Source: Escherichia phage iGC_PHA_EC001 | Length of the DNA stretch: 64,000 bases | Sequence record: OR437326.1 | Strand: one strand, 5' to 3' | Part shown: one piece after another, positions 2,643 to 47,695 of the stretch | Numbering within the stretch: position 1 is the stretch's first letter | Layout: each line of letters opens with the position of its first letter | Made by a program: the position numbers and the translations under genes | Notes under the pieces: model-generated | What the model was told of the DNA's origin: nothing | Seen by the model: only the letters and a program-made list of their open reading frames with translations | Database searches by the model: none

Positions 2643-2654
2643 TTTGTTCTCCTG

Positions 2655-2933
2655 TTAAAATGGTTCGTTAGTCTCCATCATATATTCTGCTTCTAGTTCT
2701 TCCATATGCTTTCTAAATTGGAAAGCAATTTCTGCTACAGTTACATTTAAATCTTTTTCAAAAACTTCTGTAGAGCCTTCATAAAAACGAATACCGTCAA
2801 TTAAAAGCCCTCCGTGGTAATCCCAATCACTTTCACGAGAAAGCGGGTTAGGCTCTTCATAATAGTAATCCACCTCCACAACTAAGGCTTTCCCGTTACG
2901 AGTGGTGTATTCAAAATCAAAAGTGTTAATCAT
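2655..2933 (-). CDS. hypothetical protein (92 aa)
   Basis: ORF in gene array, stop/start abutting neighbours. Confidence 0.5.
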   Translation of the reverse strand: MINTFDFEYTTRNGKALVVEVDYYYEEPNPLSRESDWDYHGGLLIDGIRFYEGSTEVFEKDLNVTVAEIAFQFRKHMEELEAEYMMETNEPF

Positions 2934-3877
2934 TATAGCTCCTCAAATAAAAGTCTACGACGCTCATTCAACACATCAATGTGATAATGAGTCCTGACAT
3001 ACTTAGCTAATGCTAATCCTTTCTCCATGCAAACATCGGGAGCACTTAATAAGTATTCCGTAATATCTTTCCACTCGGAAGGTGTTTCAGCAAAGAATAA
3101 CAAATCTTTAAACTCTTGTGGATGATAATTCTCACGAGGAGAACAGATCAAAGGTAAACCCTTAGCACCTGCCTCAAGAATTTTAAGATTGCTTTTTGCA
3201 TTATTAAACACGTTATCAATCAATGGCGCAAGACTGATTTGATGACCATCGTAAGATTCCATGTAGTTGGCATATGGTCTTACACCTTCATAAACACAAG
3301 TTGGTGCTACATTTTCTCTGATCACAGACCATTCACGACTACTTAAAACTTCAGAATCCCTACGAAAACCACATATTGTAAGATCTTTACCAAAATCGGG
3401 CAAGATAGCCAAATCTTGTTTATGTGTTTCACTTCCAGCCCAGACTAATGGAGTTTTGGAGTAGCGATCACGGGTCAACACAAATTGACCTTCATCGTAA
3501 GGAAGTCCATTAGGGATTATGTGCACATTATCATTGTATTGTGAAAGTTCAACTTGCAAAGCAGGTGTCGTAGTTGTAACAAGATCGCTGTGCTCTAAAA
3601 ACCATTTTAAATGTTCACGAATACCTGATTCAAAAATACCTTCTAGCATGTGTCCTTTTGGAATAACTAAAGAGTCATCCAAATCCATAACCATTTTAAA
3701 ACCTAGGTTTTTAAGGGCTAAAAAGCCCTCTTTACCTTTTGTTGGCACCCCGTTAAAAACGAAAACGTTGTGTTTAGGTTGTGAAGAGAACTGCCTTGAG
3801 TAAGGCAGCACTACCCTATGGAAATCGCAGACACTATAATTGATTCCGTTACGATTGTCAAGAATTATTTGTCCCAT
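2933..3877 (-). CDS. putative GT-B fold glycosyltransferase (paralog 1)
   Basis: Clear paralog of 3885..4871 (shared CDYHR, VWAG, NxKSNLKILEAGAKG(L/I)P); C-terminal KILEAGAKGLPLI resembles GT1/GT4 family motif. Confidence 0.5.
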   Translation of the reverse strand: MGQIILDNRNGINYSVCDFHRVVLPYSRQFSSQPKHNVFVFNGVPTKGKEGFLALKNLGFKMVMDLDDSLVIPKGHMLEGIFESGIREHLKWFLEHSDLVTTTTPALQVELSQYNDNVHIIPNGLPYDEGQFVLTRDRYSKTPLVWAGSETHKQDLAILPDFGKDLTICGFRRDSEVLSSREWSVIRENVAPTCVYEGVRPYANYMESYDGHQISLAPLIDNVFNNAKSNLKILEAGAKGLPLICSPRENYHPQEFKDLLFFAETPSEWKDITEYLLSAPDVCMEKGLALAKYVRTHYHIDVLNERRRLLFEEL

Positions 3878-3884
3878 ACTTCAC

Positions 3885-4871
3885 CTACAAACTTTCAATA
3901 ACCTGGCGTCGCAACTCGTTTGCATCTGCCAGATTATAATGTGTTCGAACATGTTCAGCCAAGAACAAGCCACGATCTTCCCGATAGTTTGGATTGCGAA
4001 GAAGCTTAACAATTTCGTAATGCCATTCTGCTTTATTCTCTGCGTAAGCAACAGCGCGAGCATCTACAGGGTTAAAATAAGGTAATACCTTAGAACAAAC
4101 AATTGGAATACCTTTTGCTCCAGCTTCCAGGATTTTGAGATTACTTTTACAATTATTAAAATCGTTATCTACCAAAGGAGCTATAGCAATAGCATGACTT
4201 TCGTAAACACTCATGTAATTATCTAAATCTTTTACAGCGGCTTTATATTTGGCATTTGGTAAATTTCTGCGAATCTTAATCCACTCTTGTCCCGTGATGC
4301 TTTGTGATGCTTCATATCCCGCAATAGTAAGAAGTTCATCATCGAAAGTATTAGAGACTAATCGTAAATCTGGTTCGTGACTAGCACCGCCAGCCCATAC
4401 AACAGGGGTACCGGATGAACGATCATTTGACAAAGTGAATTGTCCGCTATCAAAAGGAAGTGCATTTCGGATCACAACGACATTTCTATTTAAGTGACGG
4501 ATCTTATATGCCAAATATTCTGTAGTCACAATAACCACATCAGCAAGCTTAACCATAGCTACAATAGCATGAGTGTTTGACTCGTATAGACTTGCTAAAT
4601 AATGCTCTGGATTAAGTTGGTAAAAATCATCTAAATCTACAACAACCTTAACACCTTGACGTTTCAAAGATAAAACGTATTCTGCACCTTTAGAGTGGAT
4701 ACGGTTAAACACAACAATATCTTTCTTAGGTTGAAAATTATTGTTGTTAAATGGCATAACAATACGATGATAGTCACAACCGCTATGAGGTTTTGCATCA
4801 ATTTTTAGTTTAGACCATTTTTTATTTGACATGTGCCAGTGCCTCCTCATAGGAAATTCGGATTTTCCCAT
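3885..4871 (-). CDS. putative GT-B fold glycosyltransferase (paralog 2)
   Basis: Paralog of 2933..3877; start uncertain (Met1 at 4871 or Met14 at 4832, both with upstream RBS-like sequence). Confidence 0.5.
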   Translation of the reverse strand: MGKSEFPMRRHWHMSNKKWSKLKIDAKPHSGCDYHRIVMPFNNNNFQPKKDIVVFNRIHSKGAEYVLSLKRQGVKVVVDLDDFYQLNPEHYLASLYESNTHAIVAMVKLADVVIVTTEYLAYKIRHLNRNVVVIRNALPFDSGQFTLSNDRSSGTPVVWAGGASHEPDLRLVSNTFDDELLTIAGYEASQSITGQEWIKIRRNLPNAKYKAAVKDLDNYMSVYESHAIAIAPLVDNDFNNCKSNLKILEAGAKGIPIVCSKVLPYFNPVDARAVAYAENKAEWHYEIVKLLRNPNYREDRGLFLAEHVRTHYNLADANELRRQVIESL

Positions 4872-18133: not shown

Positions 18134-18584
18134 TTGCCGTTTTGGTCCATAATCTTTGATTATCTGACCCTCTGAAAGGTTTTGTAGTTGGATTGTTTAT
18201 TTCATACTTTCCGTCTACAATAATGTCAACAAGATTTTTAATATACAAAGGCACTTCCTCAAAAGTATATCCTGTATACACCATTATATCTTTGCTTGAC
18301 CCATAAACGTCTCTAACCTTTTCTATAAGGTTTTTAACATTGTAAATATTCTGCGGATCTAATGGCTCTCCTCCTAAAATTGTTAAACCTTTTACAAACG
18401 GTCTTGACAAATCTTTTAAAACTTGCTCTACATTTTCGTGAGTGAACGGTTTCCCATAAGAATAAGACCAGGCTTTTTGGTTAAAACAGCCACGACAACC
18501 GTGGCTACAACCACTAACCCAGAGGGAGCACCTAACTCCCTCACCATTAATAAGATCTACAGGTTCATATCCTGCAAAATTCAA
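18114..18584 (-). CDS. nrdG: anaerobic ribonucleotide reductase activating protein (radical SAM)
   Basis: CSHGCRGC cluster (CxxxCxxC), 156 aa, similar to T4 NrdG as recalled; directly downstream of nrdD. Confidence 0.85.
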   Translation of the reverse strand: MNFAGYEPVDLINGEGVRCSLWVSGCSHGCRGCFNQKAWSYSYGKPFTHENVEQVLKDLSRPFVKGLTILGGEPLDPQNIYNVKNLIEKVRDVYGSSKDIMVYTGYTFEEVPLYIKNLVDIIVDGKYEINNPTTKPFRGSDNQRLWTKTASGWQSD

Positions 18585-20395
18585 AAATGTTTCTCCCTTT
18601 GCAAAACTTCCTGCATTTTACCTTTGTTGTAAGGGCGTGAATTAGGGGCAGAAAGATACCCTGACACACGTCTAACTACAGAAATAGTTTCTTCTTCATG
18701 GTTGCCACAATCAGGACACTCAAACCCTTTAGCCGTTGCCTTAAATTCTCCATGAAAACCACACTTAAAGCATTGATCCACGGGCTGATTAATACCAAAA
18801 TAGTGAATATGTTCATAAGCGTAGTCTACTAAAGTCTCCAAAGCTTCTAAGTTATTCTTTAAGTTTGGTGTTTCGACATAACTTATGTTACCACCATTAC
18901 TAATCTGTGCAAAACCTGCTTCATAATCCCATTTTTCAAAAGGATTTGTTACCAACCACACAGGTTGATGAAAAGAGTTAGTAAGATAGTCTCTTTCTAC
19001 CAAACCTGGGTATTTTTCATTTAAAGCTGTTGCAAACTTATAGCACAAAGATTCTGCTGGAGTTCCATAGAGACTAAACGCCAAATTAGATCGTTCTTTA
19101 AACACAGCACACACATCTTTCATATGTTGCAGAATGCTTTTACCAAGTTCCTTTTTATCTTTTTCTTCTGGATAAAGGATTTCCAAAGCTTCGGCAAGAC
19201 CTACATAACCAATACTAATAGAAGCATAACCACCTTCAAACAAAACACCAATTTCATCATTGGCATTTAAACGCGCTAAAGCCCCTTCCATGAAAAGAAT
19301 AGGGTTTTCAGATGCTTTGGTATGTCTGATACGGTTTACACGTAGCATGTGAGCATCGTAGGCTATCTCCATATGTTTATTAAGAAGATCGGTGAAAGAT
19401 TCTCCTTTACTTCTCGCTTCCGCAGCGATCAGAGGTAAGTTGATAGAAACTACTCCAAGGTTGAATCGTCCATCGTATTTTTCTCCTTGTTCGGTGGCAT
19501 AGTACGACAAAAAGGAACGACAACCCATACTCGTAACAGTACCATCTGCTGATCCCGTAACTTCTTTGTTCAAAGGAACAGAAATAAAATCTGGATAAAT
19601 ACGATCAGCACAACATGCCAAAGCTTGTTGCTTAAGGTCATAGTTAGGATCACTAGGTTTCATGTTAACACCTTCTTGTAAAAAGAAAATAACTTTAGGG
19701 AATACAGGCGTTACATGATCTTTGCCTAGACCGTTACTATGCACTTTAAGATAGTTAGCTGTAATCATTCTGCCAAAAACAGAGGTATCCAGACCCATAC
19801 TGATTGTAATAAAAGGAGATTGTCCATTAACACTCATTAAAGTATTAACCTGATACAAGAGAGTTTGCATAGCATCATATACATCTTGTTCGGTCATTTC
19901 CAGGGCTTCTTTCCTTGCATAACAACCGTAGCGACGTTTGGTTATCTCCATGTTTTTAAGGAAACTAGCTTCAACATAAGGACTAAGACCTTTATCAATG
20001 TGCGCACACGTCTGACCTCCATACTGACTGGAGGCAACAGCTTGGATGATTTGAGTTAGCACTGTGGTAGCTACTCCAATAGATTTTGGTTTTTCTATCT
20101 GTGCGGCTCCGATCTTAAAACCATTCTCTAACATATCTTGATAATTAACAAGACAACAGTTTGTAAGAGGAGAGAGTAGATAATCCAAGTCGTGAATATG
20201 TCCAAAACCTTCTGTATGCCACTCTGACAAGTTTTTTGGCAGTATCTGTGTCATTGCCATATGTTTGCTTAAAATCCCCGCCAAGAGATCCCTATGCGTG
20301 TTAACGAGGTGGGAAGGTTTGTTTGCATTCTCTCTAGTGTATGTTTCTGAAGTGCGATCTAAAAAAGAAAAAACATCTTGGTACAAATCTTTCAT
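18581..20395 (-). CDS. nrdD: anaerobic ribonucleoside-triphosphate reductase (T4-type, about 604 aa)
   Basis: Strong resemblance to T4 NrdD as recalled (NCCLV..MLENGFK.G.AQIE.PKSIGVAT; C-terminal Cys cluster and glycyl-radical motif RRVSGYL). Confidence 0.9.
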   Translation of the reverse strand: MKDLYQDVFSFLDRTSETYTRENANKPSHLVNTHRDLLAGILSKHMAMTQILPKNLSEWHTEGFGHIHDLDYLLSPLTNCCLVNYQDMLENGFKIGAAQIEKPKSIGVATTVLTQIIQAVASSQYGGQTCAHIDKGLSPYVEASFLKNMEITKRRYGCYARKEALEMTEQDVYDAMQTLLYQVNTLMSVNGQSPFITISMGLDTSVFGRMITANYLKVHSNGLGKDHVTPVFPKVIFFLQEGVNMKPSDPNYDLKQQALACCADRIYPDFISVPLNKEVTGSADGTVTSMGCRSFLSYYATEQGEKYDGRFNLGVVSINLPLIAAEARSKGESFTDLLNKHMEIAYDAHMLRVNRIRHTKASENPILFMEGALARLNANDEIGVLFEGGYASISIGYVGLAEALEILYPEEKDKKELGKSILQHMKDVCAVFKERSNLAFSLYGTPAESLCYKFATALNEKYPGLVERDYLTNSFHQPVWLVTNPFEKWDYEAGFAQISNGGNISYVETPNLKNNLEALETLVDYAYEHIHYFGINQPVDQCFKCGFHGEFKATAKGFECPDCGNHEEETISVVRRVSGYLSAPNSRPYNKGKMQEVLQREKHF

Positions 20396-20495
20396 TATTA
20401 ATCCTTATTTTGTGAGTAGAACTATTATTCTACCTCTTCCAACCGAAAAAAGCTTTGAGGAAAATCAAAAAAGGCGCAAAGTGCGCCTTTAAGTT

Positions 20496-21914
20496 TTATT
20501 GTTTGGAGAGGAATTGTCTTCCCATGATCTTACCGTTCTTTACAGCGGTCCCATCGTGTCCATTATAATCCCAAGTTCCATCAATGTTACGCAAGAAGCT
20601 ATCACGAACAGTGTAGGCTTTACCGTTCTCTACTTTACTTTCTTCAACAATAATCGCCATAACAAGCTTATTTTCAATTTCGGTAGTAACCGATTCTTTA
20701 ATACCCTCTGTAACTTCACGATCATATTGGATATAAACTCGCTCCTCGGTCACTTGCACGTCTACCACATTTTTAAATGTGTATGTCTGCTGTGTAGTGT
20801 AAAGGACACGAACAACACTCTTCTTACCTACTGGCGGCTTCTTACGAGGCTTACGGTAACGTGGTTTAGGGTTGTTAGTTGGAAGCCAACCAACAATATC
20901 CCGCTCATATCCAACATGACCCCAAGTGAAATGCGTAGCCGATCCACTATCCGTAGTTCCGTCACGAAAGAGAACTTCTACGTGACCACCACAAGGGCGG
21001 TGTCCACCATTATTATAGTTGTATTTTGCCGTGCGCGGGAGAATGAAGTATTCTTTAATCGCCCACTCTTCCAGATTGTCGATATTCCAAGTGAATACTG
21101 TTCCCTTAGCAACATCTGTTTGACCATTGTTGAAGCGAACCTGCACGAAATCTTCTGAAGGCATAACACCTGTGTTCGGCAGATATTCAAATGCAGTATC
21201 TTCCGCTACAAACTGTTCTTCCTCTTGCTCCTCAATACTTGGCACAGGCGCAGCTTCATCGTATTTCGCAGCAAACATATTTTTAAATTCTTGGGCCGTG
21301 ACTTGTACAAGGCCGCGATCACCAGTAGCAGCAGAGTGTGGGCGTGGTAAATCCCCAACTTCAATATGCATTGCATCTAAACCTGCTTGACGATCAAAGA
21401 AGATAACCTTGCGGAATTGTTTATCTTTATATTGTGGCAGTTCATACATACTTGGGTCGATTGTCTTCAAACGTTCAGCATCTTCTGGCTTCCAGAAGCT
21501 TTTACCTGTTGCAAATCTAAAGTCTACCAGTAGTTTAACAACATCTCCTAATGATAAACTATCTGCATCTACGAAAACGTCTTCGATTCCCAATAACCCT
21601 GATTTCTTAAGAATCAGATCTAACATGTAACCTCCTGTGGTTTGTTCTGCGTCTGGATAACGATCAACACTGGTGCTGGTTACACCGTTTATTTCACCAG
21701 TGGAGGCATTGTAGGAAATATATGGGAAGGTCATATCGTTCATTGCAAAATCACCTGAACAGGTTGGATCATCTTCTCCCTCCCAGCCATACACCTTCAC
21801 AATACCTTCACACAATTTGTCATACACACCAGCGCGACGTGCTGCTTCAGCAACTTCCTGTTTACGGGCAAATTTATTAATCATGATTCCTCCTGTTAAT
21901 TGCCATAGATGCAC
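20496..21914 (-). CDS. hypothetical protein (472 aa)
   Basis: Long ORF; start may be Met11 (MINKFARKQ); no confident motif. Confidence 0.55.
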   Translation of the reverse strand: MHLWQLTGGIMINKFARKQEVAEAARRAGVYDKLCEGIVKVYGWEGEDDPTCSGDFAMNDMTFPYISYNASTGEINGVTSTSVDRYPDAEQTTGGYMLDLILKKSGLLGIEDVFVDADSLSLGDVVKLLVDFRFATGKSFWKPEDAERLKTIDPSMYELPQYKDKQFRKVIFFDRQAGLDAMHIEVGDLPRPHSAATGDRGLVQVTAQEFKNMFAAKYDEAAPVPSIEEQEEEQFVAEDTAFEYLPNTGVMPSEDFVQVRFNNGQTDVAKGTVFTWNIDNLEEWAIKEYFILPRTAKYNYNNGGHRPCGGHVEVLFRDGTTDSGSATHFTWGHVGYERDIVGWLPTNNPKPRYRKPRKKPPVGKKSVVRVLYTTQQTYTFKNVVDVQVTEERVYIQYDREVTEGIKESVTTEIENKLVMAIIVEESKVENGKAYTVRDSFLRNIDGTWDYNGHDGTAVKNGKIMGRQFLSKQ

Positions 21915-22682: not shown

Positions 22683-24275
22683 TTAACGATCCTCTCTGAT
22701 TTGATTAATCTTACGAGCAAGGGCAGCTATAAGCTTATCTTCTTCGGATACAGGAGCCGTGCTCTTACCTAAACGATGCATGTCTAGAATCTCTTGAACA
22801 GTCCGGTTCCATTGTAGACATTTAATACAACGTGTATGTGCAACATACAGAAGGTTTCGTTCTGATTCTTCAAGACCTACCCACTCACCCTTCTTATCAT
22901 AATTAGAAGGAAAGTCATTTGCAACAATAACCTGATCCCACTCCAAACCTTTTGATTTGTGGGCTGTAGTTAAAGTAACTTTAGCCGTTGGAGAGTTACG
23001 GTGCATACGTAAAGTATATGCAATATTATTAGCTTTACCAGAAACAACAATGTTTAAAAGTCGTTTTGCATCAGGATCTGATTCTGCACACTCTACAAAT
23101 TCTTCCCAAGAAGTGTAAGGGAGAACTGTCTCATGCTTAACTTTGTCCAAATCACCTCTACGTAAAGCATTAACACTATCAACCATAGAAATGAAATCTT
23201 TGGTATCTACGTTAATAATAATCTCTTCTCCGTTAGCGATTCGGTCCATAGCTTCGAGCAACAGAGTCAAATTCTTACGGAAAATAATGGTGTAAGGTTT
23301 ACTATAATCTACCACATCAGAATGAAAACTTCCAGTGACAGTATCATAACCTTTGCCTACCAGCGGATGCTTCAGAGGTGAACGATCAGAAAGGATCGCA
23401 TTAGCAATTTCCGCAACTTTAGGACCAAAGCGAAAACAAGCTGTCAGAGGCAACTCAACCCCATATGTAGCCGTTTGCTTCATCATGTTCTGGCTTCCAC
23501 GGAACTGATAAATACTCTGAAATTCATCACCCACAACAACAATACGTTTAGCCGATTTAGCATTGCGAAGGATAGACAGGAATGCAGGGTTAACATCCTG
23601 GAATTCATCTCCGAAAATAATATCATATCCTAAGTCTTCTTTGCTCAATTCAAATAGTTTCACATAGGTGTCATGAGTCATAATTGTTTCTGATTTAGGA
23701 TCAATACGCTCACGCCAAAGTTGCTTCGCATATTTAACAACTTCGTTAATAAGTTTTTGTTCGTTGATGTTTTTACGTTTTAGGTCTGACATGTGCACTT
23801 TAGGAAAATGTTTATGTCCAATATGTTCATCGTCAGAAAACTCATATTTAGCTAAAGTTTGTTTTACCATTAACCCGATCATTGCACGAGTCAGTAGCAC
23901 TTTACCATTCTTATCGATCAAGTTCTGAATCTTGAATTTCTTGGCAATCTCACTACCAGTTCCAGCTACGTTAACATATTGACCTTCTGGACGAGATAAT
24001 TTGTGTCGAAGGTTTTGTGGAAGACGCTGGTAACAGATTGAATGTAGCGTTCGGCACATAACGTTAGGCGGCATTTTACGCCGAGCTTCCTCTGCCATAC
24101 TTTTGTTAAACGCCAAGTATAGAATACTATCATTTGTGCCATTAGCCAACATATACAGTGTTGACGTTTTACCTGATCCAGATTTAGCTTGAATTGTAAC
24201 GAAACGATTTTCTTTATACCCGCTTTCAATAGCGTATTGTTCCTCGGTAGGTGTAAAACTCAATTGTGTAGACAC
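22683..24275 (-). CDS. SF1 DNA helicase (Dda/RecD/UvrD-like)
   Basis: Walker A AKSGSGKTST, IIFGDEFQD, VVVGDEFQSIYQFRG, LTTAHKSKGLEWDQVIV. Confidence 0.75.
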   Translation of the reverse strand: MSTQLSFTPTEEQYAIESGYKENRFVTIQAKSGSGKTSTLYMLANGTNDSILYLAFNKSMAEEARRKMPPNVMCRTLHSICYQRLPQNLRHKLSRPEGQYVNVAGTGSEIAKKFKIQNLIDKNGKVLLTRAMIGLMVKQTLAKYEFSDDEHIGHKHFPKVHMSDLKRKNINEQKLINEVVKYAKQLWRERIDPKSETIMTHDTYVKLFELSKEDLGYDIIFGDEFQDVNPAFLSILRNAKSAKRIVVVGDEFQSIYQFRGSQNMMKQTATYGVELPLTACFRFGPKVAEIANAILSDRSPLKHPLVGKGYDTVTGSFHSDVVDYSKPYTIIFRKNLTLLLEAMDRIANGEEIIINVDTKDFISMVDSVNALRRGDLDKVKHETVLPYTSWEEFVECAESDPDAKRLLNIVVSGKANNIAYTLRMHRNSPTAKVTLTTAHKSKGLEWDQVIVANDFPSNYDKKGEWVGLEESERNLLYVAHTRCIKCLQWNRTVQEILDMHRLGKSTAPVSEEDKLIAALARKINQIREDR

Positions 24276-31995: not shown

Positions 31996-32325
31996 ATGAA
32001 AAAATTAATCTTAGCCACATTGCTGGCTACCGTAAGCTTCACCACTTACGCTCAAAAATTTGTAGCAGTTAAAACGGATATTGGTAAAGATGTTGTGATC
32101 ACAGGCAACAAATTTTACTATACCCCTGGAAATGGTGTTCTAGAAGAGTGCCAAGATGTTGAGGCATATACAGGAAAAGAAGATAACACGGAACGTCCTT
32201 TTTATTCGATTATAGCTACTTGCAAAAATGAAATAGTAGCTATTAAACAATACAAAGATGCCCCTGGAGGAGAGTACTTATTAATCAAGAATATTAAGAG
32301 TGAAAAACTACAAAGTTTACAGTAA
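31996..32325 (+). CDS. secreted protein with signal peptide
   Basis: Trimmed to MKKLILATLLATVSFTTYA (signal peptide), RBS aggaggg. Confidence 0.5.
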   Translation: MKKLILATLLATVSFTTYAQKFVAVKTDIGKDVVITGNKFYYTPGNGVLEECQDVEAYTGKEDNTERPFYSIIATCKNEIVAIKQYKDAPGGEYLLIKNIKSEKLQSLQ

Positions 32326-32350
32326 TTATTTTAAAAGGAGAAACGTTCTA

Positions 32351-33490
32351 ATGAAATACACTATTTTTGGAGATGTGGCTGTTGTAAATAAGGAATATGG
32401 TGTTGAAGCTAATAAACTTCCTGCTGGAGTTTGGGTTGTCAACTGCGATCCGCACGGTAACTACTCTTTAGTGCGTGGCGAAAGTTTCTCTCTTCCGAAC
32501 ACTCTTTATGGGGAAACTAAAGACCGCGCCGCACATGTTATTAAAACATTTGCTCGTCGTAGTAAAGAAGGTAAAAATACTGGGGTGTTACTGACAGGAA
32601 CAAAGGGCAGTGGTAAGACGATGTTAGCTAAACTGATTAGCATGTCCCTAATGTCCACAGAAGGTTTAGGTATTCCAACCATTTTGGTGACACAGCCTTA
32701 CACAGATGCTGGATTCTTAGAATTTATGAGTAAAATTACAGATCGTGCTGTTGTTTTATTTGACGAGTTTGATAAAGTGTACGCTAAGAAAGAAGATCAG
32801 GAAGCACTGTTGACCTTGTTGGATGGAACAGGAAGTGGAAATAAACTTTACATCCTCACTAAAAATAGTGGCTATATCTCGGAATATTTTGTAAACCGTC
32901 CTAGTCGTATCTACTACAGTTTCAATTACGATAAACTGTCTAGTGAAACTATGTTAGATTACTTGGATAAGAACTTGGTAAATAAAAAGCACGTAGATAA
33001 CTTCCAACGTTTATGGGATGTTAGCACAGAGTTGTCTTTCGATGTTATTCAAGGCATTGTAGAAGAATTGAATTTCTATCCAAAAATGACTTTTAAAGAA
33101 TGTCTTGAAATGATGGGTATTTCTTTAGGGAACGATGCTAAATGGAATGTGGCTTCTATCGTAGCTAATGGCAAAACCTTGAAGGTGAATTGGATCAATA
33201 ACTGGCACGACTTCACCCCTACTAAGTTTTTGTCGGGTGCTTGTTCCCTGAACATCTATCTACAAAGTTTGAAAGATGATGAAGTGGAAGCAATAGAAAC
33301 CAACAGTTATGTTATCCTGGATGAAGATGGTGATCCACATATTGATCTATGTGCAACGGCGGATGGTCTAACTTGCGATCTGATTGAAGGTGGTAAGATT
33401 CTTGTGATGAGCACTACACCAGGAAACACTCTGCGAGTGGTGCTGGAGCCTGTAACACAACGTTCCACCACACTTGGTAGCGTGTTCTAA
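32351..33490 (+). CDS. P-loop ATPase (AAA-like)
   Basis: Walker A GTKGSGKT, Walker B VVLFDEFD; trimmed to MKYTIFG with RBS aaaggag. Confidence 0.6.
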   Translation: MKYTIFGDVAVVNKEYGVEANKLPAGVWVVNCDPHGNYSLVRGESFSLPNTLYGETKDRAAHVIKTFARRSKEGKNTGVLLTGTKGSGKTMLAKLISMSLMSTEGLGIPTILVTQPYTDAGFLEFMSKITDRAVVLFDEFDKVYAKKEDQEALLTLLDGTGSGNKLYILTKNSGYISEYFVNRPSRIYYSFNYDKLSSETMLDYLDKNLVNKKHVDNFQRLWDVSTELSFDVIQGIVEELNFYPKMTFKECLEMMGISLGNDAKWNVASIVANGKTLKVNWINNWHDFTPTKFLSGACSLNIYLQSLKDDEVEAIETNSYVILDEDGDPHIDLCATADGLTCDLIEGGKILVMSTTPGNTLRVVLEPVTQRSTTLGSVF

Positions 33491-33494
33491 TAAA

Positions 33495-33519
33495 GATGCC
33501 CCGCAAGGGGCATTTCTTA
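33495..33519 (+). terminator. rho-independent terminator
   Basis: gatgccccgcaaggggcat hairpin followed by ttcttat. Confidence 0.55.
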
Positions 33520-33531
33520 TAGGATGAAATC

Positions 33532-34740
33532 ATGAGTAAAGCTAAAAGTTGGGAAGAATATAAAGCAGAATGCGAGATCATAGCTCTCTCTAAAGGATAT
33601 AAAATTTTAGGCCATAAAGAATGGAAAGGGTGTGAGACTAAACTCCTGATAGAATGTCCTGTGCACGGTGTATGGGATACTTGTAAAATATCTAACTTTA
33701 AAAGTGGGAAGTCTTGCCCTTCTTGTGGTGAATTAACAAAAAGGGAGAAGAGAACGAAGAGCAGAGAGGACCAAGAGAAAGAGTGTGAAGAAGAAGCGTT
33801 AAAAAGAGGTTGGCGCTTCTTGGGTATCTATGGAGAATGGCTGAAAGCTAAAAAGACACGAGTAATCTTACGTTGTGATAGGGGTCACGAGTTTAACACA
33901 TCTACCATAGACAACTTTAAGAATAATAAACAAGGTTGTCCAGTTTGTCGTTTAGAGGATATAGGTAAACACAATAAGCTTTCAGACGATCAGCACATAC
34001 AAGATTTCATGAGTACGGGTGTGTTTCCCGAAGGCACTACCTTCACTAATACAGGGGAAAAAGCTGGGAGGAGCGAAATACTTTGGAGTGTATTTTGCCC
34101 TATCTGTGCTATAGATGAGTTTTCCAAAGCTGGGGTAGGAACGGGATATTTTATCGGTAGAGGTAGTTCATTAAAACAGGGTATGCGCCCTTGTCGTTGT
34201 TCTGCCAGTTACAAATATTCTGAAGAAGAGATGACATTTAGAGCAAAAAGTGACGTAGAACGTAGAGGGTACGTGTGGTTGGGGTGGATCGGGAAAGCTT
34301 CTATACTTGGGGATTTTGAATATGGTTGCAAGGATCATGGGAAACATGTGTGTAGTGCTAACAATTGGTTAAATAAGGGGTGTGGTTGCCCTGGTTGTGC
34401 AGGTATGAATCAACAACAAGCCTACATTAATTATATTTACGATGAGCAAGATATTATCTGTGCACTGAAGTTTGGTATTGCTAATAATAGTAATCGCCGT
34501 ATCAAAGAACAAAATAGTCGTAATGTGTTTACTATGAAACAGAGCCAAGTGTGGCACTTCCCTACTGTGAAGCAATGCAAAGATGCAGAAAAGCGTTGTA
34601 AGCGTGTCCTTCACACGGAAGCAGTGAGCAAATATTCTATGCCAGATGGCTACACAGAGACAGTGGAGTTATCTTGCATGGCATCAATACAAAATATTTA
34701 TAAACTTTATGGTGGAACATTACAGGAGGAAACATGTTAG
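33532..34740 (+). CDS. Cys-rich protein with four tandem zinc-ribbon-like modules and a C-terminal GIY-YIG/T5orf172-like region
   Basis: Repeated about 60-aa module ..G(Y/W)..LG...W......L.C..GH.......NFK..K..CP.C; C-terminus YINYIYDEQD..ALKFGIANN. Confidence 0.45.
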   Translation: MSKAKSWEEYKAECEIIALSKGYKILGHKEWKGCETKLLIECPVHGVWDTCKISNFKSGKSCPSCGELTKREKRTKSREDQEKECEEEALKRGWRFLGIYGEWLKAKKTRVILRCDRGHEFNTSTIDNFKNNKQGCPVCRLEDIGKHNKLSDDQHIQDFMSTGVFPEGTTFTNTGEKAGRSEILWSVFCPICAIDEFSKAGVGTGYFIGRGSSLKQGMRPCRCSASYKYSEEEMTFRAKSDVERRGYVWLGWIGKASILGDFEYGCKDHGKHVCSANNWLNKGCGCPGCAGMNQQQAYINYIYDEQDIICALKFGIANNSNRRIKEQNSRNVFTMKQSQVWHFPTVKQCKDAEKRCKRVLHTEAVSKYSMPDGYTETVELSCMASIQNIYKLYGGTLQEETC

Positions 34741-35831: not shown

Positions 35832-35886
35832 TATTTTAACTTTTTTCATTTTTAGAACAAAGGTGTCACTTTGTAGCACAGAAATA

Positions 35887-35925
35887 AGGCTCCTACAGCA
35901 CCGTAGAGAGCCTGTTATTTTGTCC
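35887..35925 (+). terminator. rho-independent terminator after NADAR gene
   Basis: ggctcctac-agcacc-gtagagagcc hairpin followed by tgttattttg. Confidence 0.5.
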
Positions 35926-36071
35926 TATACAAACCCTTGTCTTTTTCAGTTTGCATCACTAGGATTCGATCTGAGTGGGTTCCTGAAGGTCTGCCAATAA
36001 GATTAAAGGTTATCTCAAACTCCCATTACCTATTATCTCAAAAATCCCTCAAATTATTTAAACTTTTTAAG

Positions 36072-36260
36072 AATTTACAAAAGTGAAAGTTGAAAACCAA
36101 AATTTAAAGTTTAGGAAAATTATCTTAAAATGTCAGATACAAAACAAAACTCAAAAGTCAAGGAAAATTTTAAAAATTTTGCGCGCCCACAGTATTTAAA
36201 GTTTTTTTGCTTTTACAAAAATGAAAGTACAAAAGCAAAATTTAAAGTTTACAAAAATTT
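36072..36260. repeat. two imperfect direct repeats (about 45 bp) in AT-rich noncoding DNA
   Basis: ttacaaaagtgaaagttgaaaaccaaaatttaaagtttaggaaaatt (about 36072-36121) and ttacaaaaatgaaagtacaaaagcaaaatttaaagtttacaaaaatt (about 36211-36260). Confidence 0.55.
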
Positions 36261-36298
36261 ATGCAGATGGGAATGAGAAGAGTTCTCATATGGAAATG

Positions 36299-36322
36299 CA
36301 AATGATAATGATTCGCATTTAG
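36299..36322. promoter_or_regulatory. Fur-box-like palindromic motif, copy L1
   Basis: aatgataatgattcgcatttag; compare E. coli Fur box consensus gataatgataatcattatc. Confidence 0.35.
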
Positions 36323-36357
36323 GTTTATAAATGAGATTGATTCTTATTTGATAAGGT

Positions 36358-36388
36358 AAATGATAATCATTCTCATTTAGAGAATGAC
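36358..36388. promoter_or_regulatory. Fur-box-like palindromic motif, copy L2
   Basis: aaatgataatcattctcatttagagaatgac; near-perfect dyad. Confidence 0.4.
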
Positions 36389-36636
36389 GCGCAGGGGCGG
36401 TGTTTGTCTCGCGCTCCCGTGTCCCCTCGCCATGTAATAAGAATAACAGATCCAGCCAGGAAAGCAAGCGATTATTTTATCTTTACATTTCTTTACAAAT
36501 ATATAGCGCCCAGCCTACCGGCGATCAACCTTCCAACCAGTGCCCCTGGTATGTTAGCCCCGCCTTTACGCCGTGGGGTGGCGCTTCCTCTTCTGTATGT
36601 AAAACAGTATAAGCCCGATCCCTGGGCTTGTCAAGA

Positions 36637-41675: not shown

Positions 41676-41822
41676 ATGAATACATCTAATCGCGCAGAAA
41701 AAATTCAATCTTCCAAGATCCGCAAGGCCTGGAACGAGGAAGTGATCCGCAAAGGCGACAAGCGTAATAAAACAAAGCGCGGGAAGAGTGACAAATATAA
41801 TTGGATGGATTTAGAGGATTAA
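41676..41822 (+). CDS. small basic protein (48 aa)
   Basis: Own translation MNTSNRAEKIQSSKIRKAWNEEVIRKGDKRNKTKRGKSDKYNWMDLED after cassette 12. Confidence 0.45.
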   Translation: MNTSNRAEKIQSSKIRKAWNEEVIRKGDKRNKTKRGKSDKYNWMDLED

Positions 41823-41829
41823 CATAACA

Positions 41830-41858
41830 AGGGCGCACCAAGCGCCCTTTCTTTTTAC
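41830..41858 (+). terminator. rho-independent terminator (repeated hairpin family, copy 1)
   Basis: agggcgcaccaagcgccct followed by ttctttttac. Confidence 0.65.
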
Positions 41859-43947: not shown

Positions 43948-44011
43948 TTGACAGTAGGCAAACAACGTAGTAAAGTTTATTACATAGAGCGGCGGAATGG
44001 TCCACCGCTCA
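43948..44011 (+). promoter_or_regulatory. early promoter plus 5-prime stem-loop cassette 18
   Basis: ttgaca..gtaaagtttattacata gagcggcggaatggtccaccgctc; cassette ATG at 44031 opens only an 11-codon frame. Confidence 0.55.
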
Positions 44012-44050
44012 CAACAGAAGAGAAACAAATCATGATCCCGACTATGTTTT

Positions 44051-44362
44051 ATGTATCGCGCAAAGGTTAATCTCGTTGGTTATCTGACAGATGAAACTAT
44101 CCGTAAAAATTGGCGTAATGCTGATTTACTGGCTTGCTTATTGATTAATAGTGTCGCTGATGCTTTCCAGTGTGAAACAGCCGAGAGCCTGGAGGCAAAC
44201 TTGTTCGACAATATGGATCAAGCCATTGAAACCTATATTCAATCAAATTTAGATAGCTGGAACAGTAAAACATGGCCTGACAGCTTACGCGATACAACTG
44301 ATCAACTGATCCGCCTTGCCCTGATGGTTGAACGCGATAACGTTTACAACCGCACAAAGTAA
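44051..44362 (+). CDS. hypothetical protein (103 aa); start ambiguous (possible frameshift relative to cassette ATG at 44031)
   Basis: ORF-track ORF; the RBS-positioned ATG at 44031 is in another frame. Confidence 0.45.
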   Translation: MYRAKVNLVGYLTDETIRKNWRNADLLACLLINSVADAFQCETAESLEANLFDNMDQAIETYIQSNLDSWNSKTWPDSLRDTTDQLIRLALMVERDNVYNRTK

Positions 44363-44371
44363 GATTGTACA

Positions 44372-44395
44372 AGGGGCGCACTAAGCGCCCTTTAA
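44372..44395 (+). terminator. terminator hairpin (repeated family, copy 2)
   Basis: aggggcgcactaagcgccctt then tt. Confidence 0.55.
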
Positions 44396-44421
44396 CGTAA
44401 AGAAATGTAAATAATGCGCTA

Positions 44422-44457
44422 TCCCCTATTGACAGGGGATCGGCGTTATATTATATT
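44422..44457 (+). promoter_or_regulatory. sigma70-like promoter with palindrome over -35
   Basis: tcccctaTTGACAgggga-..-tatatt; precedes gene 44503. Confidence 0.45.
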
Positions 44458-44502
44458 TAACTCACTGGCAGCAAACAACGAAACGAAACAAAGGACAACA
44501 CC

Positions 44503-44922
44503 ATGAACATTAAATCAAATAATCCAGCTTACTCCTTCGATAACGCTTTTTGTCACGGTAGCGCCGCCAAAGGCTTCGAAATCGATGGTAAATTGGTTAT
44601 CGTGAACGTTGACGGGGAAGAGGTTGCAGTGTATCCGGTAAACGATGTTAAAAGCCGTTTACAATGCCGCATGGATGTTACCGCATATCAGCTTGATCCG
44701 GTCCGTGTAGTTGCCCTGGTATTAGAGGAAGAGATCAAAGCAATGCATCATAGCAATAAGTTTATTGGTGACGCGCAGGACAATATGAACGTTTGCCGCC
44801 ATAAAGTTAATGAAGCCTTGAAAGAATGCGGTTTTAAGGATCTGATGATCAAACGTGATGAAAAATTCCGCTTTCGTAATGACCTGGCAAACCGGATCTA
44901 CTCAATCTATGAAGCGTTATAA
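44503..44922 (+). CDS. hypothetical protein (139 aa)
   Basis: ORF-track ORF. Confidence 0.55.
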   Translation: MNIKSNNPAYSFDNAFCHGSAAKGFEIDGKLVIVNVDGEEVAVYPVNDVKSRLQCRMDVTAYQLDPVRVVALVLEEEIKAMHHSNKFIGDAQDNMNVCRHKVNEALKECGFKDLMIKRDEKFRFRNDLANRIYSIYEAL

Positions 44923-44935
44923 TTGACAACAAAAC

Positions 44936-44965
44936 AAGGGGCGCACTAAGCGCCCTTTCTTTTTG
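44936..44965 (+). terminator. rho-independent terminator (repeated family, copy 3)
   Basis: aaggggcgcactaagcgccctt followed by tctttttg. Confidence 0.65.
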
Positions 44966-45926
44966 CCTGAATAATGTTGATAGATTCCGCCTATGGAAAA
45001 CAGACACAGAACAAAACTGAATAAATAGCGGTATCAAGCTAATCAACCATTAAACGAATAACCATACCTCCCAGGGTAACAGGCTGTTAGAGAGCCATTT
45101 ATAGCGGTTAAAATCGATCAACAACCAACAACAAACCATCAAAAACACCCTTTTACCTCCTTTCTAGTGCAATGATAACCATTATCATCTATCCATGTTT
45201 ATCTATGCAATATAAGTGCATAACTATAATGTTGATAATAGTTCGCAACAACTAACTAACCAACAACCTAAAACAATAAGCAAACTAATCATAATCAAAG
45301 GAATAATAGCAAGATGATTGATAACGACAAACAATCAAACCATGATGAATACTAAGCAAGATAACGATAACACGACAAAACAACCAACTAACGAACAATA
45401 ACAAACGAAACCATTAAAATAATAACTATTAGCAAAATAGTGCCTGAATGAAATCATTACAAAACGAATCATTCCCAGGATCATCATTAGCACGCTATGC
45501 CGGACACATAGCGAGCTAATAATAAGCCAACTACACCCCAACAATCATAACCATCGGTGATGGTTATTTCTTGTTACTGCGTAGCTTGCAATAATTGCAA
45601 GCGTAATGACGCTTACACTTATTGCGCTGGCTTATTATTAGCATTATATGTAATTACCAAGATCATAACATTAGCGCAATAACAATAATCATTGTAGTAA
45701 TTACAAGATGAAATCATTAGCAAGATGAATAATTGCACGTAGCAACATGAGCGAATAGCGACAGGTTGCATAGTGTGCACATAGTGTATAAACATACAGG
45801 AAAATAAAGGCTAATCTTTTGGGGGCGAATACTATCGCGTAGCGATATGTTGAGCATCTTCTCTTAAACGTAAATAAAATCAGAAAATTCTTGATTTATT
45901 TTAGTTTTTATGTTAATAAACGTTTA

Positions 45927-45948
45927 AATAATAATCATTCTCATATAA
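45927..45948. promoter_or_regulatory. Fur-box-like palindromic motif, copy R1
   Basis: aataataatcattctcatataa. Confidence 0.3.
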
Positions 45949-46105
45949 ATAATAGTCTGCTTGTCATGAGCGGGATCAGTTGACAATGTTCCGTCATATG
46001 ATGAGGTTGCCAAACCATTGATAAATAAGTGTTTGTGTGATTTATAATCAAGTGGCCCACCTTGTCGCTACGTTGGCATGAGCCTTGCATAAGTCATTGA
46101 ATACG

Positions 46106-46127
46106 AATGATAATTATTCTCATTCGC
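46106..46127. promoter_or_regulatory. Fur-box-like palindromic motif, copy R2
   Basis: aatgataattattctcattcgc. Confidence 0.35.
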
Positions 46128-46466
46128 ATGATATTTGGGAATTGTCGCTGCGTGGACCTGACGGCCCGAAAATTCGCGTTAAGCACTTCTTACGTATGCG
46201 CCATGATTTTTTGCCATATGATATTGATTCTATTAGATATTCTTGCCATGATTGCCATGAAACAGGGTGTGTCGAAATAATCTCTCCCCGTAGATATTTT
46301 GGGTTACTTTTTATACAAGAGTGGGGTGTCAAAAATAATCGGTATATATGGGATAATTGATAGGAATCCCCTATGATAATTCTATTGTAATTCCCTAAGA
46401 TCGATCGTATGATGTTGGTGATTGATGATTGCCATGAAAGATGGCTAACGATGAGAGGAGATTATC

Positions 46467-46871
46467 ATGCAAGAGAGTAAAAATGTTCCGTTGAGTAGTG
46501 CAGAATTGATTCGATTCTACAAAGCATGGATGGCTGATCACTTCAGCATGGATCGCACGAAGAATGGTCTGTGCACTTGTCTTGTAAATTTCCTAGCCTC
46601 AACACTACAACCTGAAAACCCGACAGAGGATCAATGGATAACCTACTTAAAGATACGTAATAAGATTGTAAGAGAGATGAAATCTCAATTTCTTTGTGCT
46701 AACCTGTCTTATGTCTTTCCATTTAATATGGGCTTCCAAGATTATGAAAATGAAGTCAAACACAAAAGGTGTCATGAAAACCAACTACGTGTGCAATGGG
46801 TTAAGGACAGAATTGAAGATTGTTTGAATAATTATGAGGATGTGTTATGCGAACAAAACAAATCTCGTTAA
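46467..46871 (+). CDS. paralog family A member 1 (FY..W..../GLC/CHxN/WVKD signature)
   Basis: LIRFYKAWMADHF..NGLCTCL..PFN..CHENQLRVQWVKDRIEDC. Confidence 0.6.
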   Translation: MQESKNVPLSSAELIRFYKAWMADHFSMDRTKNGLCTCLVNFLASTLQPENPTEDQWITYLKIRNKIVREMKSQFLCANLSYVFPFNMGFQDYENEVKHKRCHENQLRVQWVKDRIEDCLNNYEDVLCEQNKSR

Positions 46872-47212
46872 GTAGTACAATGTTGTTGATGTTTTATAAA
46901 AGGTGGTTGGAAGGAGATACTTCCCTTAATCGCACAGAGCACGGGTTGTGTTTATGTATTAATCATTTTGTGCGAAGTCATTATGCAAAGGATGTGCATA
47001 GTCCCAGATGGTATGATGACATGGCGAACAGCTTGGTATATGAAATGCGCAAGCAATTTGAAGAAGCTGGTCTTTGTGCTATTAATCCATTTAACAAAGA
47101 ATATGCAGATTACTTCTTTGAAGTTGAGAACAAAATGTGTCATCTGAATCCGCTTCGCATTCAGTGGGTGAAAGATCGCATTGAAGATGCAAATAATGCT
47201 TGCATTGAATAA
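46847..47212 (+). CDS. paralog family A member 2
   Basis: MFYKRWLEGD..HGLCLCI..NPFN..CHLNPLRIQWVKDRIED. Confidence 0.6.
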   Translation: MRTKQISLSSTMLLMFYKRWLEGDTSLNRTEHGLCLCINHFVRSHYAKDVHSPRWYDDMANSLVYEMRKQFEEAGLCAINPFNKEYADYFFEVENKMCHLNPLRIQWVKDRIEDANNACIE

Positions 47213-47262
47213 AGATGTTTGTATAATGGATGACATAACAGATAGCCAATGAGGAGATTGAA

Positions 47263-47472
47263 ATGTCAAATATGAAAACTGTATCCTTGTATTTAGCTAA
47301 CACGGATCGTGTGCACACCCTTGCTAATGCAAGTCGTGTACTCGTGCAGTTCCGAAACTTTGCACCGTCCGTTGTGACAGGCAGTGAAACGTGTGTTATC
47401 GATTTCATTAACGAATACTTCCGAGGGAATCCGGTTAGTCGTTACTTTATTAAGGGTCTGAAGGATGCATAA
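47263..47472 (+). CDS. hypothetical protein (69 aa)
   Basis: ORF-track ORF, RBS gaggag. Confidence 0.5.
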   Translation: MSNMKTVSLYLANTDRVHTLANASRVLVQFRNFAPSVVTGSETCVIDFINEYFRGNPVSRYFIKGLKDA

Positions 47473-47473
47473 T

Positions 47474-47695
47474 ATGAAACGCATGAAAATTCGTATTGAG
47501 AATGATGGTGGTTATAAAGGATTGGCACATGCAAAATTTCCACTTGTGCTGGAAGCTACTGTGGAATACAGTGGGCTTGCGCATGTGCGATTCTCGAAGA
47601 TGATGGAAGTGCAGGAATGGTTTTGGGACGAGATAGATGCACGAGAAGGGGAAGATTATGTTTTCTTTCCTCATGAATATAACATTATCTATTAA
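47474..47695 (+). CDS. hypothetical protein, paralog pair B (copy 1)
   Basis: Trimmed to MKRMKIRIEN; paralog of 51415..51636 (MKIR(I/V)..FP/IPFV(L/V)EA..W..E...DYVFF..E.N). Confidence 0.5.
   Translation: MKRMKIRIENDGGYKGLAHAKFPLVLEATVEYSGLAHVRFSKMMEVQEWFWDEIDAREGEDYVFFPHEYNIIY

Follow-up and report, generated by a model that had tools for sequence, protein, structure and literature searches.

A non-coding 1.5-kb region of Escherichia phage iGC_PHA_EC001 as the probable junction of chromosome ends carrying a direct terminal repeat, predicted Fur-like boxes, and a covarying five-helix element

Introduction

The chromosomes of phages T7 and T3 end in a short exact repeat of 160–230 bp with fixed ends and non-coding, repeat-rich flanks. 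Promoters for the host polymerase lie in the first few hundred base pairs of the left end, and cis signals together with hairpin-forming DNA lie on the right-end side. Concatemer junctions of this type, with a short direct terminal repeat (DTR), were reportedly described by Dunn and Studier in 1983, Chung and Hinkle in 1990, and Zhang and Studier in 2004. Here, we analyzed positions 44966–46466 of a 64,000-nt window (the whole stretch of DNA under analysis) from Escherichia phage iGC_PHA_EC001 (OR437326.1), a region free of credible open reading frames (ORFs) that is very probably a collapsed junction of chromosome ends. Like the T7 and T3 ends, this junction has an exact repeat with fixed ends, repeat-rich flanks, predicted left-end promoters, and right-end hairpin DNA. 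Unlike T7 and T3, the phage is a 150-kb myovirus without a T7-type RNA polymerase and its repeat measures 329 bp; a GTTRAGCA octamer stands at both boundaries, operator-like boxes lie within the repeat, and the processing is here read from sequence only.

The related phages Schickermooser, Mt1B1_P17, and BME3 have the same boundaries and synteny as the window, with the phrog_12277 gene on one side and the first early gene on the other; the difference is that the repeat occurs once and in the interior in the window's collapsed or permuted assembly. The papers on Schickermooser and BME3 give the repeat length only, with no cut-site words, hairpin, structured element, iterons, or Fur-like boxes. 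In rV5, a large ORF-free region in a dense genome was drawn as a 'non-coding' box and assigned no function (PMC3606486). Phage Av-05 (NC_025830, Vequintavirinae) has a 1.9-kb ORF-free stretch (2471–4389 of our locus L038), also with no function assigned. Common to Av-05 and the window, at ~80% DNA identity, are the terminator, the conserved blocks, and the module with a pair of Fur-like boxes (window 44930–45255). The DNA match of Av-05 to our 1.6-kb query covers this leftward module only, the end of the upstream gene in the query being unmatched. Av-05 is without the GTTG/AGC and CGCGTTA/AGCAC boundary words (slashes mark the predicted cuts) and without the five-helix core.

Regulation of early promoters near genome ends by a global host regulator is known from the virulent Bacillus phages phi29 and Nf, in which Spo0A boxes at these promoters were proven experimentally (PMC2731898). 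The present locus resembles them in having host global regulator sites, here predicted, at early promoters near the ends of a lytic phage genome. It differs in that phi29 and Nf have protein-primed linear genomes and Spo0A reports sporulation, whereas Fur (iron) is the predicted regulator here. As in the Fur operators of E. coli (a 19-bp Fur box with overlapping hexamers of the GATAAT type; PMC2189734), the boxes match at 14–17 of 19 positions, are palindromic, overlap with a 6-bp offset, and lie over predicted promoter cores or starts. Unlike those operators, they sit on a virulent phage chromosome end and not before iron-uptake genes, have frequent GAGAAT-type half-sites, include an array with a 29-bp period, and are predicted only.

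Results and Discussion

Chromosome ends and the terminal repeat

An earlier note on this DNA had named a replication origin, a packaging site, and a regulatory hub as candidate roles. The packaging site, in the sense of a terminus, was supported by homology to relatives whose physical ends have been determined or deposited (Table 1). In the Schickermooser record, the first 329 bases equal the last 329; the alignment to the window runs from 45853 (base 1) to 46181 (last base) at ~97% identity, and the repeat was published as 328 bp (Korf et al. 2019, PMC6563267). The independently produced record of Mt1B1_P17 has an exact 328-bp redundancy, which corresponds to 45853–46180, again with ~97% identity in the repeat. 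An A both opens the repeat and follows it, hence the one-base ambiguity. For the phi92-like phage BME3, PhageTerm gave a 342-bp DTR (PMC12210895). Its boundaries are homologous to those of the window, and the DNA between them is only ~70% similar; this comparison used the true terminal redundancy of the record and not its annotated DTR-L coordinates. In the deposited BME3 record (PP239276), a 788-bp block is duplicated and Ns are present near the end, and the annotated DTR-L is shifted by 73 bp from the real 342-bp redundancy, which looks like an assembly or editing artefact. According to a 2025 paper, direct terminal repeats form the ends of Stephanstirmvirinae genomes. Many database records start or stop within 44966–46466, some of them exactly at 45852/45853 or 46180/46181; record ends coincide with the right boundary in BI-EHEC and WPEC1/4/6 and with the left boundary in 3A1_SA_NWU and 10C3_SA_NWU.

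The two boundaries have the word GTTR/AGCA in common, as GTTG/AGCA on the left and GTTA/AGCA on the right. The extended words, TGTTG/AGCMnnTTCTCTTAAA on the left and GAAAAT(T)CGCGTTA/AGCAC on the right, were kept in every Stephanstirmvirinae locus examined (over 20 distinct sequences, five metagenomic lineages among them), with repeat lengths of 321–353 bp. Just before the left cut, the window has a GC-rich hairpin. Hairpins with stems of 4–8 bp were found 4–14 nt (mostly 5–10 nt) upstream of this cut in 11 of 21 distinct sequences, and the stem varies by lineage (TATCGC, CCGCC, ACCGC, ACCCT, GCCTT, AACCTT). One or two additional GTTG/AGCA pseudo-sites lie 24–80 bp upstream of the left cut in DE16, muut, Tr1, KP13-26, and locus L031.

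The exact redundancies, the homologous boundaries, and the conserved boundary words therefore point, with high probability, to a collapsed concatemer junction formed from the chromosome ends of a DTR phage. The repeat would appear once and internally because the assembly was opened elsewhere, so that the two chromosome ends became fused. The junction would consist of right-end non-coding DNA (44966–45852, ~890 bp), the repeat, and a left-end leader (~285 bp). Several observations weigh against this identification. The ends of this isolate are read across from relatives 92–98% identical to it. No terminase gene is encoded within the 64-kb window. The window has GTTRAGCA at four further places, and the octamer alone is therefore not sufficient as a signal. 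The pre-cut hairpin was absent from Justusliebigvirus among the 21 distinct sequences compared. Since the repeat and its length have already been published for the genus, the identification of the terminus is a further case of a known thing.

Table 1. Positions of the features in and around the ORF-free region (window coordinates; promoters, cuts, and boxes are predictions).
Feature	Position	Strand	Sequence or remark
Bidirectional intrinsic terminator	44936–44965	both	end of the + strand operon on the right genome arm
Leftward module	44966–45255	−	predicted promoter, Fur-like boxes, and conserved blocks down to the terminator
Predicted leftward promoter	−35 at 45238–45233; −10 at 45214–45209	−	TTATCA, 18-nt spacer, TATATT; promoter scan
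G-depleted, A/C-rich tract	45100–45430	+	words CAACAA, AACCAT, GATAACGA
Five ATTAGCR iterons	45428, 45486, 45637, 45670, 45716 (45428–45722)	+	same orientation; flank the five-helix element
Five-helix element	45493–45642		conserved helices H1, P1, H2, H3, P4
Helix H1	45493–45499/45507–45513		
Helix P1	45515–45529/45628–45642		
Helix H2	45547–45555/45559–45567		
Helix H3	45585–45591/45595–45601		
Helix P4	45602–45607/45621–45626		
Hypervariable spacer	45653–45852		identity 0.58–0.79; least conserved part of the region
GC-rich hairpin	45833–45847		TATCGC-gta-GCGATA; ends 5 nt before the left cut
Left cut	45852/45853	+	ATGTTG/AGCATCTTCTCTTAAACG
DTR equivalent, 328/329 bp	45853–46181	+	homology to the ends of relatives
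Predicted rightward promoter in the DTR	−35 at 45891–45896; −10 at 45913–45918	+	TTGATT, 16 nt, TTAATA; read from sequence
Fur-like box D	45927–45945		at the predicted start of the promoter inside the DTR
Fur-like box E	46106–46124		~60–75 bp inside the right DTR boundary
Right cut	46180/46181	+	GAAAATTCGCGTTA/AGCACTTCTT; short form AAAATTCGCGTTA/agcacttctt
Left-end leader	46182–46466	+	GCCATGA repeats at 46200, 46245, 46254, 46431; first gene at 46467
Predicted leader promoter	46385–46413	+	TTGTAA-17-TATGAT; promoter scan
5′-UTR hairpin	~46431–46445	+	GCCAT-gaaag-ATGGC; before the ribosome-binding site of the first gene

Relatives and synteny

By megablast, 75 phage records matched positions 44900–46500 at ~80–99% identity, 47 of them at 95–99%, and almost all were Phapecoctavirus. 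On these matches the window is from a Phapecoctavirus, a phAPEC8-like myovirus of ~150 kb in the subfamily Stephanstirmvirinae. A more sensitive search added Justusliebigvirus (phi92-like) and unclassified Klebsiella and Citrobacter phages, at ~70–78% identity in patches. The ORF-free gap is syntenic across the Stephanstirmvirinae, with a length of 1.5–2.0 kb (Justusliebigvirus, Tr1, and KP13-26 included), between the phrog_12277 gene upstream and the first early gene, which matches phrog_2510. Pattern scans retrieved few further loci: three in IMG/VR and 16 in metagenomes, about half of the latter being chance matches.

Predicted promoters and Fur-like boxes

The proposal of a regulatory hub is plausible, and conserved predicted promoters with Fur-like operators can be added to it, all on the strength of sequence comparisons. 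The Fur-like motifs mentioned in the earlier note were recovered by a search for a palindromic 19-mer with at most three mismatches, which gave five sites (nine strand matches) in 64 kb against 0.11 expected. All five lie within the two largest ORF-free stretches of the window. Boxes C1, C2, and D overlap predicted promoters that are conserved across lineages, these promoters being consensus predictions.

Inside the repeat, the TTGATT −35 element and a box ~10 nt past the −10 element were kept in muut and Eryne, with the sequence between them diverged. Tr1 has TTGCTT as the −35 element, and KP13-26 has a poor −10 element and a weak box at a shifted position. Box D is conserved while its flanks diverge, and it reaches 17/19 to the Fur consensus in Justusliebigvirus. 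Box E, with overlapping matches 6 bp apart, scores 14–15/19 here and 17/19 in phiWec phages; it is present in most lineages, and at its position in Tr1 and KP13-26 there is no match of at least 14/19. In the leader, the TTGTAA −35 element, the word TGYCATGAAA, and the ribosome-binding site GAGAGGAG are conserved between genera. At each end of the linear chromosome, the predicted promoters face inward. Two points weigh against the promoters: generic sigma-70 promoter-like sequences numbered 11 versus 8.9 ± 3.1 expected, which is not above chance, and every promoter in the region is a consensus prediction.

The chance that the boxes are operators for host Fur is, in our estimate, about even. They agree with the classical consensus GATAATGATAATCATTATC at 14–15 of 19 positions here and at 17 of 19 in phiWec phages, Justusliebigvirus, and L031. 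Phages of E. coli, Klebsiella, and Citrobacter, hosts that share the Fur box, keep them at equivalent positions, and GAGAAT hexamers are present in known Fur operators such as iucA. Overlapping matches with a 6-bp offset, as seen here, are the pattern reported for genuine E. coli Fur clusters (PMC2189734). Other features speak against host Fur. The half-sites are split about evenly between the Fur-type TGATAA and TGAGAA; the best palindrome (ATGAGAA-gag-TTCTCAT at 36272) agrees with the Fur consensus at only 12 of 19 positions; and an array near 36.3 kb has four boxes at an exact 29-bp spacing, unlike typical overlapping Fur clusters. Because of the TGAGAA half-sites and the array spacing, the cognate protein may not be Fur. 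The boxes could instead be operators of a phage-encoded dimeric regulator, or a chance likeness in AT-rich DNA, with host Fur uninvolved; we regard this as a tenable reading of less than even probability. Binding by a phage-encoded or other factor is given a comparable, below-even probability, and the remainder goes to no binding at all.

The array lies in the second ORF-free stretch (35832–36636, ~800 bp), with boxes at 36272, 36301, 36330, and 36359. This stretch also contains a 72-nt direct repeat (36050–36121 and 36188–36259) with A-rich AAAATTTAAAGTTTA words, and no Rfam family or tRNA was found in it. It may be another control region using the same DNA-binding factor.

If the boxes do serve host Fur, the ribonucleotide reductases encoded in the window offer a possible physiological reason, as these enzymes require iron cofactors. 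The furthest-reaching version is speculative and, taken as a whole, improbable: the Stephanstirmvirinae (and, for one module, the Vequintavirinae) would carry genuine Fur operators on the inward promoters at both ends, two of them within the repeat, in addition to the 36.3-kb array; Fur-Fe(II) would repress early transcription, and perhaps also genome entry or replication, until iron became limiting; and the adjoining five-helix element would direct cutting or duplication of the repeat. Our literature search found no report of Fur control in virulent coliphages, these included, and no relevant transcriptomics of Stephanstirmvirinae.

Conserved right-end DNA

The terminator, palindromes, repeated words, and low GC content listed in the earlier note were all present where it had placed them. 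The strong terminator on the left is a stem-loop at 44936–44958 with a T-tail; on the + strand it has a 9-bp stem with six GC pairs and the tail CTTTTTGCC, and the minus-strand mirror is weaker. It is annotated as a terminator in phAPEC8 and Schickermooser and is conserved out to Av-05. Hairpins near-identical to it occur at ~41821–41856 and 44369–44393. The perfect palindromes aaccatcggtgatggtt (45549–45565) and gcttgcaataattgcaagc (45584–45602) both sit within a long-range inverted repeat of 24 nt (45506–45529/45628–45651). The repeated words were ATGAAATCATTA, at 45448 and 45708, and ATGATTGCCATGAAA, at 46248 and 46425. GC content was 0.34 over 45001–46000 compared to ~0.39 elsewhere. Relative to the rest of the window (~62 kb), GCCATGA was enriched 48-fold (four copies), ATTAGCA 26-fold (four copies), and AACCAT 11-fold (eight copies).

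Positions 45003–45652 were conserved at 91–98% among nine Phapecoctavirus-like genomes, some of which are ~80% identical overall; in the same set, the upstream gene was conserved at 88–92% and the downstream gene at 23–65%. The right-end non-coding DNA is strongly constrained. The leftward module at the start of this DNA was found by nhmmer in 24 loci, phage Av-05 among them, and has no conserved ORF in the relatives compared. Its predicted promoter is flanked by Fur-like box C1 (45171–45189) and a degenerate box C2 (~45226–45244), with the −35 element inside C2 and the predicted transcript start ~12 nt before C1. Reading five lineages by eye, we found TTATCA followed after 16 or 18 nt by TAAAAT, CATAAT, TATAAG, or TATATT in four of them (the window, Av-05, KP13-26, and Tr1); the −10 element is poor in muut. 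In Justusliebigvirus (muut, inny, BME3), a second, partial copy of the module, comprising its terminator-proximal 180 nt, lies ~1150 bp upstream (nhmmer E ~1e-8).

The A/C-rich tract is composed of 47% A, 21% C, 9% G, and 23% T on the + strand and is 96–98% identical across Phapecoctavirus-like genomes, above the neighboring genes. Justusliebigvirus has a different tract in its place, visibly G-poor in the alignment by eye. An R-loop or primer formed by a G-rich, C-poor leftward transcript was considered and rejected, the composition not being kept in loci L025 and L032.

Five-helix element and iterons

Within the conserved right-end DNA, ahead of the hypervariable spacer, lies an element with five conserved helices, flanked by iterons. 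In covariation alignment A2, with 18 distinct sequences from at least five lineages, 96.1% of the cells were paired, and both sides had changed in 12 of 44 pairs (64 cells). The covariation score was 0.220 versus 0.075 ± 0.008 in shuffles, of which none in 500 reached it, and it fell to 0.014–0.038 in a control with the partners slid. Folding z-scores relative to shuffled sequence were −8.0 for + strand DNA, −6.7 for + strand RNA, and −9.35 for minus-strand RNA. The H3 stem (GCTTGCAA with TTGCAAGC) is almost invariant and its loop variable. The outer 10 bp of P1 are the longer iteron form TATTATTAGC, several repeats of which lie immediately downstream of the core in KP13-26 and Tr1. ATTAGC is enriched 13-fold and ATTAGCA 26-fold. 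Helix H2 was considered as an intrinsic terminator and rejected, as its T-tail is not conserved across lineages.

We tentatively favor a cis element acting at the DNA level, as a cruciform or a single-stranded intermediate with protein sites, for packaging or replication. This preference is based on pair changes that are nearly always double with very few G-U intermediates, on non-Watson-Crick cells split evenly between the strands (four U-G on the + strand and five A-C, which are G-U on the minus strand), and on the lack of a conserved promoter or terminator on either side in the lineages compared.

The conserved parts could also be non-coding RNA genes, namely a five-helix structured RNA and, on the minus strand at 45202–44937, a Fur-repressed, RyhB-like small RNA of ~265 nt. 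The strong covariation and folding scores would suit the former, and the leftward module has the layout of the latter, with a conserved promoter, two operator-like boxes, and a terminator, recognizable at the DNA level in another subfamily. We consider these RNA genes unlikely. An Rfam search of 44000–47500 on both strands gave no match below E = 0.9, and the near absence of G-U pairs, the even split of non-Watson-Crick cells, and the missing bracketing signals are a better fit to a constraint on DNA or on both strands. In the leftward module, a conserved RNA structure was rejected, since RNAalifold yielded only the terminator hairpin, and the minus-strand U-tail is lost in several lineages.

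Proposed working of the junction

By analogy with T7-type phages, the five-helix element, the repeat, and the promoters could work together as follows, a mechanism of cutting, duplication, and early transcription that we infer. Replication would produce concatemers with one repeat copy per junction. The terminase would recognize the junction, the likeliest signals being the right-end ATTAGCR iterons, the five-helix element, and the pre-cut GC hairpin, and would cut or nick at GTTG/AGCA on the left and GTTA/AGCA on the right. The 329 bp between the cuts would be duplicated, leaving a repeat at both ends of each virion DNA. After injection, host RNA polymerase would start at the inward promoters, at ~45891–45918 and 46385–46413 on the + strand and leftward at 45238–45209. 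At two of the predicted starts, those of the leftward promoter and of the promoter inside the repeat, the boxes (45171, 45927, and 46106) lie over the start or beyond it; most likely they would be operators for host Fur or a phage protein of similar specificity, gating early transcription.

Replication origin

The region could be a replication origin, or contain one beside the probable packaging site. The ends of a phage genome can harbor an origin together with packaging signals, as with the secondary origins of T7. In such a scheme an initiator would attach to the ATTAGCR iterons, unwinding would take place in the five-helix element or in the AT-rich, G-depleted tract, and the leftward promoter would give a primer or an activating transcript. 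The five iterons in the same orientation around a covarying structured element, the AT-rich and strand-asymmetric tract, the conserved predicted promoter adjoining it, and a non-coding sequence more conserved than the neighboring genes all agree with this scheme, which we nevertheless regard as doubtful. These features are not specific to origins, no DnaA boxes were found in the region, and some lineages do not keep the low C content of the leftward transcript. The GC-skew analysis suggested in the earlier note, run here on the 64-kb window, did not bear out an origin: there was no inflection at 45–46 kb, only a local dip from the A/C-rich tract, and the cumulative minimum fell at ~30 kb, at the transcription strand switch. 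Since the skew tracks transcription direction only, we dropped it as an indicator of origins. The same approach also failed to define an origin in rV5 (PMC3606486).

Coding potential

The earlier view that the region has no credible ORF, and that the ORFs listed there are not genes, held in every case. The seven longest internal ORFs (91, 70, 69, 58, 57, 49, and 32 aa) all contained premature stops and/or frameshifting indels among eight relatives, with no excess of third-codon-position substitutions and no significant Pfam or PHROG match. The flanking genes were intact in all relatives, with substitutions at codon positions 1/2/3 of 93/72/145 and 385/324/525. Two candidates were rejected individually: the 32-aa ORF, which has an AAGGAGG Shine-Dalgarno sequence and stops in six of the eight relatives, and the 91-aa ORF (46085–46360), which has a CHDCHETGC motif and is broken by stops or frameshifts. 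The 91-aa ORF exists because this isolate has one extra T in the T-run at ~46204–46210, compared with phAPEC8, ETEC-TG, ZCKP1, DE16, AV126, and the metagenomic contig L026; the extra base may reflect true variation or a sequencing error in the homopolymer. On this comparative evidence, protein coding in 44966–46466 is excluded.

Carefully annotated records (phAPEC8, Schickermooser, ZCKP1, DE16) leave the homologous 1.5 kb free of coding sequences (CDS). That the region is instead a headful (pac) or cohesive-end (cos) site, or a set of unrecognized small protein genes, is scarcely credible: pipeline-annotated records (ETEC-TG, PsgM04F, Eryne) do place six to nine tiny CDS in it and many records are deposited circularly permuted, but three independently sequenced relatives have exact redundancies of 328–342 bp with fixed, conserved boundaries, and the internal ORFs are all broken in relatives and without family matches.

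Implications

In the literature searched, we did not find descriptions of the cut-site word common to both boundaries, the covarying hairpin ahead of the left cut, the iteron-flanked five-helix element, or the conserved Fur-like operators in the repeat and next to it; one of the operator modules reaches the Vequintavirinae. For annotation, many Phapecoctavirus genomes are opened arbitrarily or filled with six to nine spurious small CDS here; taking the DTR equivalent as the terminal repeat, together with the boundary words, would allow correct linearization and provide a simple end-finding rule across the subfamily. These broad-host-range phages are used in therapy and biocontrol, and their packaging signals and first promoters are needed for genome rebooting, the design of transducing particles, and safe payload insertion. 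The five-helix element is a defined, mutable target for studying concatemer processing in myoviruses with short terminal repeats. If the boxes work, the iron status of the host would bear on early phage development, a link of relevance to the gut and infected tissue. If they are Fur operators, they would form a go/no-go switch by which a lytic phage senses iron, comparable to the Spo0A control of phi29.

Neighboring genes and early hairpins

Elsewhere in the window, the coding strand switches at ~30 kb, and the segments 864–2642, 18581–21914, 22683–24275, and 32300–34740 encode a primase/helicase, an NrdD-like anaerobic ribonucleotide reductase, another ribonucleotide reductase, a helicase, an ATPase, and an HNH-type endonuclease. 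A tRNA/tmRNA scan of the 64-kb window found none. Upstream of the junction, the hairpin word GGGCGGCAATGGTGCCG occurs seven times on the + strand (37052, 38580, 39221, 40595, 41638, 42388, and 43620), compared to 0.04 copies expected by chance. These copies are annotated in phAPEC8 as PHIRE 'promoters'; those examined in phAPEC8 lie just past a −10-like TAATAT and before a ribosome-binding site, and they look more like conserved 5′-UTR stem-loops of early transcripts than promoters.

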